64,000 nt of DNA from contig JAJYPS010000001.1 of NCBI GenBank assembly GCA_021795215.1, positions 728-64,727 on the forward strand, in the 5' to 3' direction. Every line of letters starts with the position of its first letter. Position 1 is the stretch's first letter. The notes beneath the pieces are model-generated. The model had not been told where the DNA came from, made no database searches, and saw nothing but the letters and a program-made list of their open reading frames with translations. Origin of the DNA: Actinomycetes bacterium (GTDB lineage: Bacteria; Actinomycetota; Acidimicrobiia; Acidimicrobiales; JAKAOS01). Shown here in pieces: positions 6,174 through 13,314 of the stretch. Made by a program: the position numbers and the translations under genes.

Positions 6174-6578
6174 TCAGCGGACGTTGCTCCGGTCGGCGTC
6201 CGGCGGCCGAGCTCCCACCGGCTCGGCGGGACCGGCCGGAGCTCCCCCGAGCTCCCGGAACGCCGCCATCGCCCTCGGGCCGTACACTGTGCCCGGGCCG
6301 CCGTTCAACAAGACCGCCACCCCCAGTGCCTCGGCCACTTCTGCTTCCGTCGCCCCCTGTCGGGCAGCGCCACGGGCATGCGCGCCTATGCATCCGTCGC
6401 ACTGGCGTGCGACCGACACTGCCAGTGCGATCAACTCCTTCGTCTTGGTGTCCAGGGCACCGGGAGCCATGGCCTCTTTGTGCAGAGTCGCATAGGCCGA
6501 CCACACGGACGGAATGCGGTCCCTCAAATAGCGGCCCTGCGGCCGGAGCTCGTCGGCTGTCTCTTTGGCGGTGGGCAT
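6174..6578 (-). CDS. carboxymuconolactone decarboxylase / AhpD-like family protein
   Basis: LDTKTKELIALAVSVARQCDGCIGAHARGA contains the CxxC of the AhpD-like fold. It is a complete 134-aa ORF. Confidence 0.85.
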   Translation of the reverse strand: MPTAKETADELRPQGRYLRDRIPSVWSAYATLHKEAMAPGALDTKTKELIALAVSVARQCDGCIGAHARGAARQGATEAEVAEALGVAVLLNGGPGTVYGPRAMAAFRELGGAPAGPAEPVGARPPDADRSNVR

Positions 6579-6588
6579 GGTTCCCTCC

Positions 6589-7146
6589 TCAGCTCCTTTC
6601 CCTACCGGCCAGTCGGTTGCGGTAGAGGGCGGCGGTAGCCGCGTCGAACGCGCAGAGAACGACCCACTCGGCAGCCCCGTCGTGTGACGCTACCGAGTCG
6701 ACCGCAATCTCAGCCGCCCGCACGGCAGGGTACCCGTAGATGCCAGTCGAGATGGCAGGAAAAGCGACGGAGCGACACCCCAGCTCCTCTGCCACAGCAA
6801 GGCTGTTGCGGTAGCACTCTCGCAGCAGCTCCGGTTCACCTTCCCCACCACCTCTCCAGACCGGTCCGACGGTATGGATCACCCACCTGATCCGAGGTTC
6901 CAGGGCGAACGCCGGCGTGGCTACGGCTTCCCCTGCGGCAAGCGGCGCAAATGCCGATGCCGCCTCGGCAAGCGCAGGGCCTGCCGCACGATGGATCGCT
7001 CCGTCCACGCCTCCTCCACCACGCAGCGCCGGGTTCGCCGCATTCACCACGGCGTCCACCTCCACTGCGACGATGTCGCCTTGCACCACTTCGATCCGCG
7101 GGTTCACCGCGAAAGCTATCCCCCACCATAAGGAGACTCTCACCAT
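6589..7146 (-). CDS. macro-domain protein (O-acetyl-ADP-ribose deacetylase-like)
   Basis: GDIVAVEVDAVVNAANPALRGGGGVDGAIHRAAG and AFPAISTGIYGYP are canonical macro-domain motifs. The start was chosen at MVRVSL (7146). The track ORF runs to 7239. Confidence 0.85.
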   Translation of the reverse strand: MVRVSLWWGIAFAVNPRIEVVQGDIVAVEVDAVVNAANPALRGGGGVDGAIHRAAGPALAEAASAFAPLAAGEAVATPAFALEPRIRWVIHTVGPVWRGGGEGEPELLRECYRNSLAVAEELGCRSVAFPAISTGIYGYPAVRAAEIAVDSVASHDGAAEWVVLCAFDAATAALYRNRLAGRERS

Positions 7147-7304
7147 TGGTTCATTCACTTCACAGCAGCGCTGCCGACAGTAGGAGTGGTGGTTCTGCTC
7201 AGCGGTGGAGCGGTTGGCGCGGTCAAGGGAGCCCGGCAAGTGGAGAGCGGTACGGTCACAGGACTTCGGGCAGCGGGGCTGCAGCTACCCGCCAGGAGGA
7301 TGAT

Positions 7305-7835
7305 ATGAGGCGGTCCCAGAAGGTGATGGCGACGGTAGCGGCCGCAAGTTCCGTAGCGATCGCGGGCGGTGCGCTCGTGGTCTGGCCGCCGGCCCCTGCA
7401 GTGCCGGTGTCGGTCAACGCAAGACCTCACACCGTTGGGAGGACGTCCCTCTCTCCGGGCACGCTCGCGTCGCTGAAAGCGCTCGGCATCCAGGAGCAGC
7501 AGCTCGCCCAAGCGATCGCCGCTGCCCACAAGAACCTCTCCACCTCCATTACCGCCGAGGCGGCGAAGCTGGCGGCAGCGGACAGGACGCTGGCCGCGCA
7601 GCGGAGCTCGCTCGCCCAGTCGGCCGCCCAGATCTCCGCTCGTCAGCAGGCTCTCAACGGGCAGGCCGCCCAGTTGGCCTCCCAGGCCGCAGCGATCCGA
7701 GCCGCAGGCGCTCAGTTGGCAGCCCAGCGAAGCGCTGCCGCGGCGGCTCCCACGCCTGCGCCGGTGTTCCACGCCGTGACCGGTGCAAGCGGAGCTCATC
7801 ACGACGACGTAGGGGGCGGAGGCAGTGACCACTGA
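7305..7835 (+). CDS. hypothetical single-pass membrane/secreted protein, Ala/Gln-rich helical, with a C-terminal VTGASG tail
   Basis: The ATG at 7305 is preceded by aggagga. The N-terminus is MRRSQKV plus the hydrophobic segment ATVAAASSVAIAGGALVVW. A long A/Q/S-rich region follows, and the protein ends FHAVTGASGAHHDDVGGGGSDH*. Confidence 0.6.
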   Translation: MRRSQKVMATVAAASSVAIAGGALVVWPPAPAVPVSVNARPHTVGRTSLSPGTLASLKALGIQEQQLAQAIAAAHKNLSTSITAEAAKLAAADRTLAAQRSSLAQSAAQISARQQALNGQAAQLASQAAAIRAAGAQLAAQRSAAAAAPTPAPVFHAVTGASGAHHDDVGGGGSDH

Positions 7836-8316
7836 CGAACCGCTCCACGACACGTTCCGGCGCTGGAGTGACTGGCAGTCTCCCCGCGGCGGCCCCCGCC
7901 GAGCTCGGTCGGACGCTCCCGCCGCCCGCGATTCGCGGATGGAGCAAGTCCGCGGCTGGGTCGCACCGGTGGCCATCGGCGGCATAGTGGCGTCCAGCGC
8001 CGTGAGCGCTCTCTTCTGGGTCGCTCCCAGGGTGCCGATCCCCTCGTCTTCTGCTCCGACGCCGTCGTCGACTTCCGATGCCGCTGCCGTCGCCGCGGCG
8101 GCGGCCGACCTCTCCCGACTGAACAGAGCCGTAGCTGCGGAGAATGCTCAGATCGCGCAGCTTGCTTCCTTGCCGGTCCCTCAGCCCAGCGCAGCCGGCT
8201 CGTCCACCGTGTCCTTGCCGGCGCTCAGCGCCGTCCCCTCCATCGGCTCGATGAGCATTCCGTCGGGGCCTCCGCCCGCAGTACAGGCGACGACCGGAGC
8301 GTCCGGTGTGCCCTGA
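7825..8316 (+). CDS. hypothetical single-pass membrane protein, Ala-rich, with a C-terminal TTGASG tail
   Basis: The GTG at 7825 overlaps the upstream stop (an alternative ATG lies at 7939). An Arg-rich N-terminus is followed by the hydrophobic segment WVAPVAIGGIVASSAVSALFWV. The protein ends PPPAVQATTGASGVP*. Confidence 0.55.
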   Translation: MTTDEPLHDTFRRWSDWQSPRGGPRRARSDAPAARDSRMEQVRGWVAPVAIGGIVASSAVSALFWVAPRVPIPSSSAPTPSSTSDAAAVAAAAADLSRLNRAVAAENAQIAQLASLPVPQPSAAGSSTVSLPALSAVPSIGSMSIPSGPPPAVQATTGASGVP

Positions 8317-8371
8317 GCGGTCCGCCGAGACACTGGCTCGTCCGCTCGTGCTCTCTCTCCGAGACCGAGCA

Positions 8372-9322
8372 ATGGCCAGCGACGTGTCGGTGACGGCACA
8401 CTGGGACACCTCTACGGAGCCGCCGGCCGGCGGCACTCGCAAGGCGATGCTGATGCGAGCGATGGAGGTGTTCCATGCCGTCGAAGCGGCCTGCACCCGG
8501 TTCGATCCGCACAGCCCGCTGATGCGCGCCAACTCCGAAGGGGGAGCCTGGCACGAGGTCCCCCGCGAGTGCTTCCTGGCTCTGTGCGAGGCGGAGAGAG
8601 CACACCGGGTCACCGGTGGCCGGTTCGATCCAAGAGTGCTCGGTGATCTGGTGCGCCTCGGCTACGACTCGAACCTGCGCTTCACCGGGCAGTCGGCCAG
8701 GAGCCTGGTCGAACTGCCGCCACGGGAGCGCCGGCTGCCCGTACCGCCGCGACCACCGTGGCGGCTCGACACGATAGCGAGCCGGCACCGAGTCCGCATC
8801 GGGCCGGAACCGGTGGACCTCGGTGGCATCGGCAAGGGGCTGGCGGTGCGATGGGCGGCGGCCGAGCTCGCCTCGTCGACCGACGGCTTCCTGGTCGACG
8901 CGGGCGGTGACATCCACTGTGGGGGGGACGCCCCCGGAGGAGGAAAATGGAAAGTGGCCGTAGAGGACCCCATCGGCGATCCGGACCCCGTCGCCGTCCT
9001 GGCGCTTTCGGACCTGGCATGTGCGACCTCCTCGACGAGGCTGCGCCGATGGAGAGAGGGCGGCAGGACGGTGCACCACCTCCTCGATCCCCGCACCGGT
9101 CAACCGGCCGGACAGGGGCTCGCCTCCGTCACGGTCGTCGGCCCCGACCCTGCCATGGCGGAGGTGTGGGCCAAGGCGATGTTCGTGGAGGGTCTCGACC
9201 GGGCCGGTCGTCTCGCAGCCAGTGAGGACCTGGCCGCACTATGGGTCGACGTGGCAGGGAACGCGTTCCTGAGCTCGGCCATGGCGCCGTACATCTGCTG
9301 GAGCAGGGTTGCGCTCGGTTAG
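8372..9322 (+). CDS. apbE: FAD:protein FMN transferase (ApbE family)
   Basis: VDLGGIGKGLAV, FLVDAGGDI, WKVAVEDP, ATSSTRLRRW and HHLLDPRTGQPA are typical ApbE motifs. Start at ATG 8372 or GTG 8306. Neither gives a signal peptide. Confidence 0.85.
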   Translation: MASDVSVTAHWDTSTEPPAGGTRKAMLMRAMEVFHAVEAACTRFDPHSPLMRANSEGGAWHEVPRECFLALCEAERAHRVTGGRFDPRVLGDLVRLGYDSNLRFTGQSARSLVELPPRERRLPVPPRPPWRLDTIASRHRVRIGPEPVDLGGIGKGLAVRWAAAELASSTDGFLVDAGGDIHCGGDAPGGGKWKVAVEDPIGDPDPVAVLALSDLACATSSTRLRRWREGGRTVHHLLDPRTGQPAGQGLASVTVVGPDPAMAEVWAKAMFVEGLDRAGRLAASEDLAALWVDVAGNAFLSSAMAPYICWSRVALG

Positions 9323-10007
9323 CCAGCGGATCGAAGCACTTCCGGTCGACGACGGCCCCCGTCCGGGCGGGTTCGTCCCGCCAGGACTTCGGTTCGGCTC
9401 GTTCGTGGCACTTATGGGCATCGCCGGCGGGTGGGTCGCGGCACTGGCTTTTCTACCTGGACTGACGAGCCGCATGCTGCCGTGGATCGTCGGCAGAGCG
9501 CTCGGGATCGCTGCCTACACGGACTTGGTGCTGTTGGTAGCGGTAGGGACCTGGTTCCGTCACCCTTGGCGCCTACGCCACACTGTCCTGCACCCCCAGA
9601 CGCAGCTGCGACTTCACGCCGGCCTTTCCGCCGGTGCGATCGCCTTGGTCGCCGGCCACGTCGCGGCGCTCGTGGCAGACTCGTACGCGAAGGTCGGCCT
9701 GCTCGGCGCGTTCGTCCCCGGCGCTTCCGGTTACCGGCCCCTCGCCGTGGCGGTGGGTGTCGTGGCCCTTTACGCCGGGTTGGCCGTAGGGCTCGGCGCT
9801 GCACTCTCCGGTAGGACCGGGTGGGGCTGGCTCGGTGTTCATCGCCTCGGAGCGGCGGTCCTGGCGTTCGCCTGGCTTCACGGGGTGCTGGCCGGGACGG
9901 ACACGATCGCTCTGCGCTGGTTCTACGTGCTGACCGGGGCACTGCTGACAGCGCTGGTCGCCTCCCGGCATGCCGCCGTGCCGCCCCAGGAGAAGCTCCG
10001 CCAGTGA
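9309..10007 (+). CDS. ferric-reductase-like (MsrQ/YedZ-like) transmembrane protein, putative di-haem b
   Basis: About 6 hydrophobic helices carry paired His residues (RLHAGLSAGAIALVAGHVAAL; GVHRLGAAVLAFAWLHGVLAG). It overlaps the apbE 3' end and is coupled to the next gene by GTGA. Confidence 0.55.
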   Translation: MRSVSQRIEALPVDDGPRPGGFVPPGLRFGSFVALMGIAGGWVAALAFLPGLTSRMLPWIVGRALGIAAYTDLVLLVAVGTWFRHPWRLRHTVLHPQTQLRLHAGLSAGAIALVAGHVAALVADSYAKVGLLGAFVPGASGYRPLAVAVGVVALYAGLAVGLGAALSGRTGWGWLGVHRLGAAVLAFAWLHGVLAGTDTIALRWFYVLTGALLTALVASRHAAVPPQEKLRQ

Positions 10008-11377
10008 GCGGGCCACCTCGGCTGATCGCACGCGAGGCCAGAGCTCGACCGGCTGCGGACGGCGCATCCCGTCGGAGACCGCTGCTCGAGCCCTGCGACA
10101 CGGCGCGAAGCGGGGGGCAGCTGCCCCGGCTGCTGGCTGGTCCCCCCGCCCACGGCGGGGCCGAGACGTTCGAACAGCATCTCGCCCGCCTGGGGCACCT
10201 GCCTCGGAGATGCCCCGAGGACATCGTGGAGATGGTCCATCAGGCGGGGCTGCGGGGACGAGGAGGGTCCGGGTTCCCGGTGGGACGTAAGATGGCCGCC
10301 GTTGCCGATCGAGGCGGCGATCCACTGGTCGTGGTCAACGCGGCCGAGAGCGAACCTGCCAGCATGAAGGACAGGCTGCTCCTCCGGCTGAGGCCCCAGC
10401 TCCTTCTCGACGGCGCAGCCGTCGCTGCGGCTGCCACCGGTGCCGGCCAGGCCGTCATCTATCTCCACTCCGGCGACGACGTTCTCGCATCGGCGCTCGA
10501 GACGGCGTTGCTGGAGAGGACCTCGACCCCCTTCGACGACCCGACCTTTCGCGTCGCCTACGGCCCGCCGAAGTTCGTCGCCGGCGAGTCCAGCGCCATT
10601 GTCTCGTTCCTCGAAGGCGGCCTCGCCAAGCCCCGCCATGCGCATCGCAGCTCCACCTCCGGCGTGGACGGCAGACCGACTCTCATCCAGAACGCCGAGA
10701 CCGCCGCGCACCTGGCTCTCATAGGGAGAGGGGGGCCGGACTGGTTCCGGCAGGCCGGCACCAGCCGGTGGCCCGGCTCCGTCCTCGTCACGCTGACCGG
10801 CGCAGTCGCCTCACCGGGTCAGGTCCTCGAGCTGTCCGGCCCGCGACCGACCTCCGACCTGCTCACAGATGCGGGCAGGCTGGATCGCCCGCCTCAGGCG
10901 GTCCTCCTGGGAGGCTACGGCGGTGCATGGGTGGAGGGCGAACGGGCCTGGGACGTTCCCATCTATCCCGACATGCTCGCCGACCGGCATCTCCCTTTTG
11001 GTTGTGGCCTCCTGGCCGTCCTGCCACACGGGCACTGTGGCATCGCCGAGACGGCACGCCTGCTGACCTACTTGGCCGACGAGAGCGCGCAGCAGTGCGG
11101 AGCGTGCATGTTCGGGCTTCCCAGGCTCGCCGAGACGATGCAGCGGCTCGCTGCCGGACAGGCAAGCCGAGCGGAGCTCCGGCGGTTCACCCGCCGGAGC
11201 GATTCCATAGTTGGACGTGGCGCCTGCGGTCACCCCGACGGAGCGGTCGCCATGGCGGCGAGCGCACTGGACACCTTCGCCGGAGACGTGGCGCTGCACC
11301 TGACCGGCAGGCCCTGTCCTCCCCACGCCCGCCGCGGGCTGTTCCCGATCCCCAGCCACTGCCCTACCTGGCGATGA
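10004..11377 (+). CDS. NuoF-like (complex I 51-kDa family) NAD(P)H/FMN/4Fe-4S protein
   Basis: GLRGRGGSGFPVGRKM (FMN/NADH site), AAESEPASMKDR and C-terminal ESAQQCGACMFG...GRGACGHPDG (N3-type cluster cysteines). The GTG start overlaps the upstream stop (GTGA). The track ORF 9821 start was judged too long. Confidence 0.8.
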   Translation: MSGPPRLIAREARARPAADGASRRRPLLEPCDTARSGGQLPRLLAGPPAHGGAETFEQHLARLGHLPRRCPEDIVEMVHQAGLRGRGGSGFPVGRKMAAVADRGGDPLVVVNAAESEPASMKDRLLLRLRPQLLLDGAAVAAAATGAGQAVIYLHSGDDVLASALETALLERTSTPFDDPTFRVAYGPPKFVAGESSAIVSFLEGGLAKPRHAHRSSTSGVDGRPTLIQNAETAAHLALIGRGGPDWFRQAGTSRWPGSVLVTLTGAVASPGQVLELSGPRPTSDLLTDAGRLDRPPQAVLLGGYGGAWVEGERAWDVPIYPDMLADRHLPFGCGLLAVLPHGHCGIAETARLLTYLADESAQQCGACMFGLPRLAETMQRLAAGQASRAELRRFTRRSDSIVGRGACGHPDGAVAMAASALDTFAGDVALHLTGRPCPPHARRGLFPIPSHCPTWR

Positions 11378-11646
11378 CGGACCACCTCCGCAACCCGTCG
11401 CAGGGCACCGTCGTGCTGGACCCCTCCAAGTGCCGCGGGCATGGCATCTGCTCACTCGCCAGCAGGGGTCTGATCGGGCTCGACGAGTGGGGATTCGCCG
11501 AGCTGAACCGACTTCCGGTCGAAGGGAGGTCGATGCGCCTCGCACGGGCAGCTGTGCTCGCGTGTCCTGCCAAGGCATTGGCTCTGGAACTTCTCCCCGA
11601 GCCTCTCCTGATCCCCGGCGCCCAGCCTGAGCCACCCCTCTTTTGA
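11374..11646 (+). CDS. small ferredoxin (single 4Fe-4S-type)
   Basis: ATGA overlap with the NuoF-like gene. VVLDPSKCRGHGICSLASRGLIGLDEWGFAE...ACPAKAL resembles actinobacterial single-cluster ferredoxins. Confidence 0.7.
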   Translation: MTDHLRNPSQGTVVLDPSKCRGHGICSLASRGLIGLDEWGFAELNRLPVEGRSMRLARAAVLACPAKALALELLPEPLLIPGAQPEPPLF

Positions 11647-11694: not shown

Positions 11695-13314
11695 ATGAAC
11701 TCTAGCTTTCGGTACATCGCGGTCCGGCTGGCTCGTCTCCGGGGTGCCGGTGCCCGCGATCTGCCGCAGCAGGCCAAGCAGCCGTTCCGGAGGATGGCAG
11801 CCGCACTGGCGGTACTGGCAGCCGGCCTGGCGGGAGCAGTCGCTCCGGCGCAGTCGGCGTCGGCTGCCCAACCTCAGGCCACCGGCTACTGGGTGGTGAG
11901 CAGTCGGGGCAGCGTGCTCCCCGTCGGCGGCATCCCCAACCTGTCGCCGAGCTTCTCCGTCGCACCGAGCACTCCGGCAGTGGCCATCGCGTCCACGCCG
12001 GACGGAGCTGGCTACTGGATCGTCACCGCGGCGGGAAACGTGTTCAATTTCGGCGATGCCGGATGGTTCGGTTCGCCCGCTGCGAGAGGTGGCCTCAACG
12101 GCACGGTGACCGGACTGACGCCGACGCCCGACGGACACGGCTACTGGATCGTCACCGCGGCGGGAAACGTGTTCAATTTCGGCGACGCCGGATGGTGGGG
12201 CTCCCCGGCAGCAGAGTCGGTGCATCTTCCGCCGGTCGTAGGAATCGCATCGGCCGCCGGGGGCACCGGGTACTACGTGCTGACCCAAGCCGGCAACGTG
12301 ATCACCTTCGGCAACGCCCCCTGGTATGGATCGCCTGCCTCGCTGAGTCCCGGTCGTATCGTCGCCATCTCGGCCGACCCCGCAACGGGCGGCTACTGGG
12401 TGGCCTCGTCCACGGGTGGCATCTTCTCTTACCACAGCCCTTTCCACGGCTCTCTGGGCGCCTCCACCATTCCGGCGCCGATCACGGGCATGCAGGCGAT
12501 CCAGGATGGCAGTGGCTACCGGCTCGTCGGTAGCGACGGCAGCGTGTACGACTTCGGGTCTGCCACCTATTTCGGGTCGGCCGTCGGCAAGAGCCTCGGC
12601 GGCCCGATAGTCGGAATAGCCCCCTCCACCGAACTGGGAGCGACCATCCGCTACCCGGCAGGCGCCAACGGCTTCGACGTGTCTTGGCCACAGTGCGGCG
12701 GCCCCCTTCCGGGAGGCCCTCACACCATCGCCATCGTCGGCGTCAACAACGGCCTCACCTACACGCTCAACAACTGCCTCGGATCCGAAGCGGCCTGGGC
12801 CGGAACAGGCCTGAACCTGTACATCAACCTGAACCAGCCCGCGTGGGCAAACGTGGTCGTCGGTGAGCATGGACCCGCCGGCAACTGCAGCCTCTCGGAT
12901 GCGCAGTGCCTGTCCTACAACTTCGGCTACAACGCGGCTACGTGGTCGGTGCAGCAGGCCGCCAACCAGCACATACACGCTCCGATGTGGTGGCTGGACG
13001 TCGAGCTCGTATCTTCGGAGCCCAGTTACTGGTCGTCGAACCAAGCGGCCAACGCTCAGGTCATCCAAGGCGCGATCGACGCTCTGCACGCCCAAGGCCT
13101 GCTTGCCGGCATCTACTCCACGTACAGCCAGTGGACTGCGATCAGCGGCAACTTCCACCCCAACGTACCGGTCTGGTATCCGACCGGGTACAACCTGACC
13201 GGTCCCGGCAGCACCAACCCCAGCTGGTGGTGCGCCAACGCGAACAGCTTCGCAGGACAGGTGTGGCTGATCCAGGGAGCCTCTGGCGCCTACGACGGCA
13301 ACTACTCCTGCTGA
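11695..13314 (+). CDS. secreted protein: six ~43-aa GYW-x-V-(x7)-FG repeats plus a C-terminal GH25/DUF1906-like glycoside-hydrolase-like domain
   Basis: Signal-like N-terminus (FRRMAAALAVLAAGLAGAVAPAQSASA). Repeats are of the form GYWIVTAAGNVFNFGDAGWFGSPA. The C-terminal domain starts GANGFDVSWPQCGG. Confidence 0.8.
   Translation: MNSSFRYIAVRLARLRGAGARDLPQQAKQPFRRMAAALAVLAAGLAGAVAPAQSASAAQPQATGYWVVSSRGSVLPVGGIPNLSPSFSVAPSTPAVAIASTPDGAGYWIVTAAGNVFNFGDAGWFGSPAARGGLNGTVTGLTPTPDGHGYWIVTAAGNVFNFGDAGWWGSPAAESVHLPPVVGIASAAGGTGYYVLTQAGNVITFGNAPWYGSPASLSPGRIVAISADPATGGYWVASSTGGIFSYHSPFHGSLGASTIPAPITGMQAIQDGSGYRLVGSDGSVYDFGSATYFGSAVGKSLGGPIVGIAPSTELGATIRYPAGANGFDVSWPQCGGPLPGGPHTIAIVGVNNGLTYTLNNCLGSEAAWAGTGLNLYINLNQPAWANVVVGEHGPAGNCSLSDAQCLSYNFGYNAATWSVQQAANQHIHAPMWWLDVELVSSEPSYWSSNQAANAQVIQGAIDALHAQGLLAGIYSTYSQWTAISGNFHPNVPVWYPTGYNLTGPGSTNPSWWCANANSFAGQVWLIQGASGAYDGNYSC
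12001..12197 (+). repeat. near-identical 129-bp-offset internal duplication inside the repeat-protein gene
   Basis: 12010-12056 is identical to 12139-12185 (47 nt). After one mismatch the identity continues for about 12 nt. Confidence 0.9.

Follow-up and report, generated by a model that had tools for sequence, protein, structure and literature searches.

In the high-GC (66%) actinobacterial sequence analysed here, a window of 64,000 nucleotides (nt) from an Actinomycetes bacterium (GenBank assembly GCA_021795215.1, contig JAJYPS010000001.1, positions 728 to 64,727), six genes follow one another on the + strand, with every junction overlapping. The first two encode small proteins, P1 (an 'A-type' carrier of 176 amino acids (aa), 7305..7835) and P2 (a 'B-type' carrier of 163 aa, 7825..8316), which share a T-G-A-S-G motif near the C-terminus and are proposed here to be fold-less substrates of the enzyme encoded next to them, ApbE, an FAD:protein FMN transferase of 338 aa (8306..9322; Pfam PF02424, E 2e-48, and PDB matches). 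This gene is followed by those of a membrane protein (Mem, 232 aa, 9309..10007) with six transmembrane (TM) segments, MsrQ/ferric-reductase-like and a putative di-haem b cytochrome according to the comparison of its orthologues with PF01794; a NuoF-like NADH-binding FMN/[4Fe-4S] protein with a GTG start at 10004 (10004..11377; PF01512 and PF10589); and a small single-cluster ferredoxin (Fdx) of the Pfam family Fer4_15, whose ATG overlaps the NuoF-like stop (11374..11646). The overlaps amount to 11 nt between P1 and P2, 11 nt between P2 and apbE and 14 nt between apbE and Mem, and those of Mem/NuoF-like and NuoF-like/Fdx consist of GTGA and ATGA, respectively. The six genes are one translationally coupled operon or module, for which a promoter and terminator scan found neither. 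Proteins identical to P1 and P2 are on record for an Actinomycetota metagenome-assembled genome (locus tags M0Z87_11370/11375).

ApbE moves FMN from FAD onto the last Ser/Thr of the motif D-x-x-[ST]-G-A-[ST] (PMC12052999). The C-terminus of P1 reads ...PAPVFHAVTGASGAHHDDVGGGGSDH, the tail with the motif and beyond being ...FHAVTGASGAHHDDVGGGGSDH, and it contains H156-A-V-T-G-A-S162-G (7770..7793, + strand), which aligns with the ApbE motif with His at the Asp position (PMC12052999). P2 ends in ...GPPPAVQATTGASGVP, its final residues being VQATTGASGVP, and the sequence together with the family alignment identifies Q154-A-T-T-G-A-S160-G (8284..8307, + strand), three residues before the C-terminus. 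The predicted FMN attachment sites would be Ser162 in P1 (AGC, 7788-7790) and Ser160 in P2 (TCC, 8302-8304). The codons of the shared motif differ (acc ggt gca agc gga in P1, acc gga gcg tcc ggt in P2). P1, which has an AGGAGG ribosome-binding site 5 nt before its ATG, is built of a basic N-terminus (MRRSQK), a hydrophobic signal or signal-anchor segment at approximately residues 8-27, a long helix (51-146) and a disordered tail with the motif and, after it, an acidic His/Asp/Gly stretch. P2 comprises an Arg-rich, presumably cytoplasmic N-terminus starting with MTTD, a TM segment at approximately residues 45-67, a short helix (82-114) and a disordered Pro/Ser/Ala linker. The Ala/Gln/Ser-rich helix holds AQLASQ in P1 and AQLASL in P2. 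Reading of the sequence thus confirmed what the initial annotation had described, namely the two open reading frames (ORFs) with their TGASG tails, the differing codons, the overlap with apbE, the basic or Arg-rich N-termini, the single hydrophobic segment and the helix with its AQLAS element.

Both small genes behave as coding sequences. The GC content at third codon positions (GC3) is 0.78 for P1 and P2 and 0.79-0.81 for the neighbouring genes, and the long ORFs on the opposite strand are flat, at approximately 0.72, without codon periodicity. The initial annotation had warned that an A/G/S/T-rich composition could yield the motif by chance, a worry that was not borne out: [ST]GA[ST] appears in stop-free stretches of the window at a rate of 2.1e-4 per residue, so that its presence among the final 25 residues in both proteins at once would be expected by chance at about 3e-5, and the comparative data described below point the same way. 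The paired tail motif is real and far beyond chance.

The clade to which this ApbE belongs contains 2864 protein clusters at E<1e-20. Related loci were taken from GTDB contigs, with one genome per species, as the best 80 of 440 matching stretches (L001-L080), and belong mostly to three groups: Acidimicrobiales, various Actinomycetes (Frankiaceae, Kineosporiaceae, Jatrophihabitans, Nanopelagicales and others) and Candidatus Dormibacterota. Judging from the 440 matched stretches, the best 80 of which were examined, the arrangement appears to recur in several hundred species, mostly of Actinomycetota. In nearly all loci with upstream sequence, two + strand ORFs with an N-terminal hydrophobic segment and the tail motif precede apbE; orthologues of P1 were recognised in 64 loci and those of P2 in 71. 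The initial annotation had proposed to test whether small ORFs with a C-terminal [ST]GA[ST] tail co-occur with apbE elsewhere, and two of them do so almost always. The canonical motif is present in 66 of 72 P2-like ORFs and 45 of 65 P1-like ORFs, the remainder showing mostly TT[RK]AS or TTGGS variants. In the six-frame ORFs of the 80 loci, 1.23 million residues in all, HxxTGAS occurs 98 times, on every occasion on the apbE strand and no more than 1.6 kb upstream of apbE, and since all 98 occurrences sit just upstream of this gene the observation can be taken as settled. The gene order ApbE-Mem-NuoF-like-ferredoxin is conserved in 77, 69 and 63 of the 80 loci (ferredoxin, 63), and beyond the six genes no universally conserved neighbour was found in them.

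The bodies of the carriers are very divergent and their tails conserved. Using BLAST among the 80 loci, P1 as a query detects two and P2 six of them, and a word-based search for relatives of P1 and P2 retrieved two each. A profile built from the P2 alignment found, among 1.84 billion representative proteins, 17 matches at E<=0.001, including the window protein and a close relative; the other 15 remote B-type matches all end in H-x-x-T-G-A-S plus two to four residues. Homology searching fails for this family because its members are too low in complexity, and it was synteny to apbE that worked. In one related locus (L081:7576-8778, the same as L011) the public annotation places a 400-aa ORF across both small carrier genes, on the opposite strand. 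In high-GC genomes these genes are prone to be missed or mis-called; they receive no Pfam annotation and are listed as hypothetical or on the wrong strand, and a simple regular expression for the tail, applied beside apbE, would find them.

The family logo is P(-6)-x-x-H(-3)-[AT]-T-T(0)-G-A-S(+3)-G. In motif-bearing members T0, G and A are invariant and the acceptor position is Ser in more than 93% (64/66 B-type, 42/45 A-type), while Pro-6 is found in 64/66 B-type and 38/45 A-type ORFs. Position -3 coincides exactly with the Asp of D-x-x-[ST]-G-A-[ST], and is occupied by His in 48/66 B-type and 37/45 A-type members and by Gln, Asn, Thr, Ser or Asp in the rest, with Asp in two of 66 and one of 45, respectively; in the window, P1 has His there and P2 has Gln. 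Both proteins therefore have the [ST]-G-A-[ST] core of ApbE substrates and lack the canonical Asp. The absence of this residue, first noted as a caveat, is real, but it loses much of its force as a weakness, as the His is itself conserved.

The codons of the motif indicate that it is maintained at the protein level, in agreement with the coding-type conservation that the initial annotation had made a test of its proposal. All four codons of Gly and all four of Ala are in use at the respective positions, and for the acceptor Ser an AGY codon is used by 35 of 42 P1-type members and a TCN codon by 62 of 64 P2-type members. No single synonymous change leads from AGY to TCN, from which it follows that the P1- and P2-type carriers are old, separately constrained lineages, each of which has long kept its Ser on its own. 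In B-type genes the motif Gly codon is the otherwise uncommon GGA in 25 of 66 cases, this codon representing 14% of the Gly codons of the bodies and 20% of those at the P1-type site. In the window (8293-8308), 'ACC GGA GCG' yields GGAG (8296-8299) approximately 6 nt before the overlapping apbE start, and the acceptor motif of P2 thus appears to double as a Shine-Dalgarno-like ribosome-binding site for apbE.

In some P1-type proteins the motif is repeated in tandem, in units of 14-15 residues that carry one motif each and are too short to be domains. The protein encoded at L071:2548-3153 contains five to six 15-residue units of SSRPAAHTTTGASGT, and that at L075:6978-7598 five units of GGGAPPTHT[SR]TGAS, whereas L041:7020-7559 and L073:7050-7568 have four and three units of H[TA]TTRAS, respectively. 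In these last two loci Arg replaces Gly in every A-type unit, whereas the accompanying P2-type protein retains T-T-G-A-S. The TTGGS variant, directly followed by the stop codon, was found in L034, L040, L056 and L064. The two types also differ in what follows the motif. The P2 stop lies 0-5 residues past it in 64 of 66 motif-bearing B-type ORFs, as well as in three independent close assemblies, and P1-type proteins continue with an acidic Gly/Asp/Ser/His tail of 8-31 residues (7791-7832 in the window), conserved in its character and nearly always ending in D-D, D-G or D-N, for which metal binding, a delay of export or docking of an acceptor are possible functions.

No match to FMN_bind (PF04205) or to any other Pfam model of a flavinylated domain was obtained for P1, P2 and 28 diverse relatives, and these 30 proteins neither fall into a consistent Pfam family nor have a meaningful NCBIfam match. 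Matches of the FMN_bind, DUF2271, DUF3570, Flavodoxin_4, FMN_red or NqrB/RnfD kinds were absent from all 30, and for P1 and P2 no folded domain is modelled around the site. The AlphaFold model of P1 consists of a single helix of 96 residues (51-146, pLDDT >95), the remainder, including the motif, being disordered, and that of P2 of the TM helix and a 33-residue helix, with the C-terminal third disordered. Assuming a rise of 1.5 Å for each of the 96 residues, the P1 stalk is estimated to be about 14 nm long. Throughout the family the ectodomains are rich in Ala, Thr, Ser, Pro, Gly and Gln, contain less than 1% of W+Y+F, and lack Cys. The Pfam search and the helix-plus-disorder models uphold the earlier statement that no FMN_bind fold is recognisable.

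B-type proteins start with MTD or MTE and have an Arg-rich N-terminus of 20-45 residues, one TM segment and an ectodomain of 70-190 residues, with the motif 0-5 residues before the stop. A-type proteins have a short basic N-terminus, an Ala/Gly-rich hydrophobic segment and a motif-bearing ectodomain of 100-180 residues. The number of Lys plus Arg in the 15 residues preceding the hydrophobic segment averages 3.1 (A) and 4.4 (B), as opposed to 0.5 and 0.7 in the flank that follows, and this marked bias strongly predicts an N-in/C-out topology for the carriers, as had been anticipated in the first description of P1 and P2. Membrane anchoring, also assumed there, is expected for P2-type proteins; P1-type proteins may instead be cleaved and secreted, since their hydrophobic segment often ends in ...ALA|xAPG, a plausible signal-peptidase site. 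An Arg-Arg pair before the hydrophobic segment, read by eye, occurs only in a subset, many members having a single Arg, and export by the twin-arginine translocation (Tat) route, considered as a way to make exported tails compatible with a cytosolic ApbE, was discarded as a family feature, though it is possible for some members.

The predicted product of apbE is a canonical member of its family, with the motifs DLGGIGKG, AGGD, TSS and HHxxDPxTG invariant in the clade alignment and solved ApbE structures of the PDB matching it at 1e-19 to 1e-12. The ORF cannot extend upstream of GTG 8306, the proteins of the clade start 10-25 residues before the first conserved beta strand (RAMAxDVT), and neither a signal peptide, nor a lipobox, nor a hydrophobic or twin-arginine stretch was found at the N-terminus in 25 aligned members or in the 80 loci. 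The signal peptide or lipobox of extracytosolic ApbEs is lacking, and the enzyme would therefore be cytosolic. A loading of the flavin by the adjacent ApbE at the outer membrane face, as suggested initially, stands as far as the enzyme is concerned, this ApbE being the candidate, but is less easily explained, as to the place, in a clade devoid of signal peptides.

Six TM segments were read from the sequence of Mem, which has four invariant histidines, His103 and His117 in the predicted TM3, His178 and His191 in the predicted TM5. The window copy, 38-51% identical to 13 aligned orthologues and up to 61% identical by BLAST over all loci, has no Pfam match (PF01794 falls below threshold) and the profile search of the PDB was also empty; six of 14 orthologues match PF01794 (Ferric_reduct), the best at E 7.8e-7. 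Mem is best described as a putative divergent di-haem cytochrome b of the MsrQ/NOX type, its haem binding being predicted from these histidines and orthologues, which also supply the combination of a PF01794 protein with apbE that is seen in MsrQ-like systems. The NuoF-like protein has, in addition to its Pfam domains, a match to TIGR01959 below the cutoff. There is no FMN_bind gene in the cassette, P1 and P2 occupying its place, and none of the other four proteins (ApbE, Mem, the NuoF-like protein and Fdx) has a conserved [ST]GA[ST], so that P1 and P2 are the only candidate acceptors. A V-P-G-A-S-G-Y sequence in a predicted outer loop of Mem (residues 136-141) was considered as a third acceptor and rejected as a coincidence, only the Pro and a Y-R-P being conserved. 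No conserved FAD exporter was found in the cassette among the 80 loci.

Regarding the surroundings of the cassette, genes for an OmpR-type response regulator and a HAMP/HisKA histidine kinase lie beside it in approximately 40 of the 80 loci, and those for an extracytoplasmic function (ECF) sigma factor with a putative anti-sigma factor in 10; neither the OmpR/HisKA pair nor an ECF sigma gene is present in the window. Upstream of P1, and divergent from it on the (-) strand, are a macro-domain gene (6589-7239) and a gene of the carboxymuconolactone-decarboxylase (CMD) family (6174-6578). The closest relative, L084 (about 70-80% identity), keeps the whole synteny with both of them included, and they are probably unrelated to the cassette, since it is only in this relative that they are syntenic. 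Downstream of the ferredoxin, 11695-13314 (+) encodes a predicted secreted protein of 539 aa with several repeats of GYWIVTAAGNVFNFGDAGW[FW]GSPAA, which has no significant Pfam match and is absent from the gene families present in at least four of the 80 related loci.

P1 and P2 are probably natural 'flavin-tags', that is, unrecognised fold-less covalent flavin carriers for electron export. This is suggested by the conserved motif beside apbE, the lack of any domain, the almost complete lack of aromatic residues and the combination of helix and disorder. Flavinylation of the tails by the adjacent ApbE appears probable from the comparison of sequences, and the whole explanation, with P1 and P2 as fold-less ApbE substrates in an NADH-driven electron-export module, is considered fairly likely. 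The interpretation of both proteins as minimal flavin-carrying tails, advanced in the initial annotation, is supported by each of the computational tests that it had proposed, namely the domain search, the neighbourhoods and the conservation of the motif. Gene content, motif conservation, the lack of a fold, the predicted topology and an ApbE free of a signal peptide are what the data show. The attachment of the flavin, the route and direction of the electrons, and the place and timing of the modification are all things that we infer. Thus, ApbE would transfer FMN from FAD to Ser162 of P1 and Ser160 of P2. The NuoF-like protein, with its FMN and 4Fe-4S cluster, would oxidise NAD(P)H, and the electrons would pass from this cluster to the ferredoxin and then across the membrane through the inner and outer haems of Mem. 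From the outer haem they could reach the covalent FMN on the tails of P2, which is anchored, and of P1, anchored or released, and these tethered and solvent-exposed flavins would act as terminal or penultimate carriers towards an extracytoplasmic acceptor encoded outside the cassette. The stalks, helical in P1 and Pro/Thr-rich in many homologues, could hold the flavin off the membrane, within or beyond the wall, and the multi-motif homologues would bear several flavins in series.

As to when the flavin would be attached, the simplest view is that the tail could receive it in the cytosol, either ahead of export or in the course of it, as a disordered tag at the very C-terminus would allow. This order of events is favoured by the position of the motif at the extreme C-terminus, which emerges last from the ribosome and is also the last to enter the translocon, by the unfolded state of the tail, by the translational coupling of apbE to P2 and by the lack of a conserved FAD exporter in the cassette; the Sec channel, moreover, reportedly lets through rigid adducts on side chains with a size of up to about 2.4 nm (Bonardi et al. 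2011, cited in PMC6028853). Even so, that flavinylation precedes export is put forward tentatively. The same reserve applies to the most extensive version of the proposal, a doubtful one at present, according to which the family is disordered, the ApbE motif of 7-11 residues is its sole functional element, and the chain, flavinylated in the cytosol and threaded through Sec, becomes the wall-spanning terminal shuttle of a NOX-like module.

Several points weigh against the carrier interpretation. The support for a covalent flavin is of a comparative and structural kind, and an unprotected flavin would have redox properties similar to those of free FMN and react with O2. The A- and B-type ORFs of the related loci were picked heuristically, by position and hydrophobicity, and approximately 30% of those of the P1 type either lack the canonical motif or have its Gly changed to Arg or Lys. 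The replacement of the canonical Asp by His makes this a type of motif beyond those tried with characterised ApbEs. Finally, a signal-less ApbE is opposed to tails predicted to be outside the cell, and known signal-less ApbEs modify cytosolic substrates (PMC12052999). These last facts, together with the absence of signals from the whole ApbE clade, would fit a different arrangement, in which P1 and P2 are N-out/C-in or peripheral and the flavinylated tails act on the cytoplasmic side, relaying electrons between the NuoF-like protein or ferredoxin and the inner haem of Mem. We consider this distinctly unlikely, taking into account the content of Lys and Arg (3-4.4 before the hydrophobic segment, 0.5-0.7 after it), the Arg-rich N-termini of 20-45 residues in B-type proteins and the Sec-signal-like ones with ALA|xAPG in the A-type, the Pro/Thr/Ala-rich linkers without Cys, typical for cell-envelope proteins, and the two-component and ECF sigma regulators, of envelope type, that adjoin the cassette in about half of the loci. 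The opposite solution, in which ApbE itself reaches the exterior or the cell surface by a route not recognised so far and loads the tails there, as classical systems do, would be in line with the modification of every characterised extracytosolic substrate beyond the cytoplasm, and with the overlap of the apbE start and the P2 stop, by which the two proteins are made together. It is very unlikely given the N-terminus of ApbE, neither hydrophobic nor twin-arginine in the 25 aligned members and the 80 loci, and a cassette without a conserved FAD exporter. A frameshift fusion of P2 and ApbE that would provide the enzyme with a membrane anchor was likewise rejected, the P2 stop being conserved in 64 of 66 cases and in the three close assemblies.

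It could also be argued that the tail is a signal of another nature, be it a post-translational modification such as O-glycosylation at Thr-Thr, a docking peptide for Mem or ApbE, or a processing site. The canonical Asp is absent, Thr-Thr precedes the motif in a Pro-rich context like that of actinobacterial O-glycosylation regions, and the recurrent TT[RK]AS and TTGGS variants alter the Gly and the Ala, residues at which replacements reduce the flavinylation of model substrates (PMC12052999). Against this, the invariant T-G-A-S core matches the ApbE motif at each residue, the His being in register with Asp, and in the 80 loci the tail motif is found only next to apbE; moreover, the cassette has no conserved glycosyltransferase, sortase or protease, and the lack of a hydrophobic segment after the motif means that this is not a signal of the sortase or exosortase type. 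We regard such a role as unlikely. As for fortuitous low-complexity matches in non-coding or mis-framed ORFs, they could be invoked in a high-GC, A/G/S/T-rich sequence with long ORFs on the opposite strand, the more so as a gene caller chose that strand in one related locus, but the exclusive position of the motif, its protein-level conservation across phyla, the GC3 periodicity and the conserved gene pair already refute them, and hardly any credence is left for this explanation.

Flavinylation by ApbE is a major route for electrons out of bacterial cells, and if the carrier interpretation of P1 and P2 is correct, nature would use the same minimal tag that chemists engineered, in a new design of extracellular electron transfer with the flavin on a flexible stalk rather than in a pocket. 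It would probably also account for some of the ApbE genes that have no recognised substrate. The signal-less enzyme raises the question of where and when flavinylation takes place and whether a flavin-bearing chain can pass through the Sec channel; should the modification precede export, the pathway would be the first in which flavinylation comes before it, and the proteins the first fold-less carriers of a redox cofactor of such kind, the extreme C-terminal place of the motif and the lack of a fold being adaptations to Sec threading. A practical use is also conceivable, with the His-type motif and the ApbE cognate to it as an orthogonal pair for flavin tagging.

Among known systems, the cassette is most similar to the MsrQ-like/NuoF-like clusters (Meheust et al. 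2021, eLife, PMC8238504), with which it shares apbE, a PF01794 Mem and a NuoF-like protein (PF10589). These clusters, likewise mostly actinobacterial, have been proposed to move NAD(P)H electrons across the membrane to an extracytosolic flavinylated protein, but typically hold a gene for an FMN-binding domain, instead of which two fold-less motif-only proteins are found here. The same work expected further undiscovered ApbE substrates. Its survey dropped genes without a predicted signal peptide and was left with 670 genomes with an orphan apbE, and a signal-less clade with unannotated low-complexity substrates would have escaped it. All the known natural substrates, namely FMN_bind (types 1 and 2), NqrB/RnfD, DUF2271, DUF3570, Flavodoxin_4 and FMN_red, are folded (PMC8238504; PMC11334425), and in the literature searched, the coverage of which was incomplete, there was no account of the motif or of disordered or tail-only ApbE substrates. 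What would be new is thus a fold-less class of predicted ApbE substrate, the surrounding MsrQ-like/NuoF-like flavinylation system being known. The signal-less ApbE has a counterpart in the cytosolic enzyme of Klebsiella pneumoniae (PMC12052999), whose substrate is a soluble cytoplasmic fumarate reductase with FMN_bind, whereas the carriers described here have export or anchor signals. The tandem motifs, three to six in number, of L071, L075, L041 and L073 recall the 'beads-on-a-string' multi-flavinylated proteins (PMC8238504, PMC10339131), in which the repeat is an FMN_bind domain of about 120-160 aa and not a unit of 14-15 residues.

The nearest natural precedent is the flavinylated FMN_red (Huang et al. 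2024, PMC11334425), whose site is also on a disordered C-terminal extension; that tail folds back on the flavin pocket of a folded domain, which P1 and P2 do not have. In functional terms the closest analogue is the engineered Flavin-tag (Tong et al. 2021/2022; PMC9400968; PMC12052999), a short unstructured terminal x-x-[ST]-G-A-[ST] peptide, as in P1 and P2, which works best at a protein terminus. A terminal tag of seven residues is enough for ApbE, and in the cytosol of E. coli such tags on unrelated proteins are loaded and fully modified by a signal-less ApbE, the change of the motif Asp to Ala having a minor effect and Ser being a somewhat poorer acceptor than Thr (PMC12052999; PMC9400968). 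Whereas the Flavin-tag (GVDGLSGATLTS) is an artificial peptide that contains Asp and has Thr as its acceptor, the tag of P1 and P2 is natural, with His at the Asp position family-wide and a Ser acceptor, and appears conserved, across hundreds of species, on stalk proteins that are secreted or anchored.

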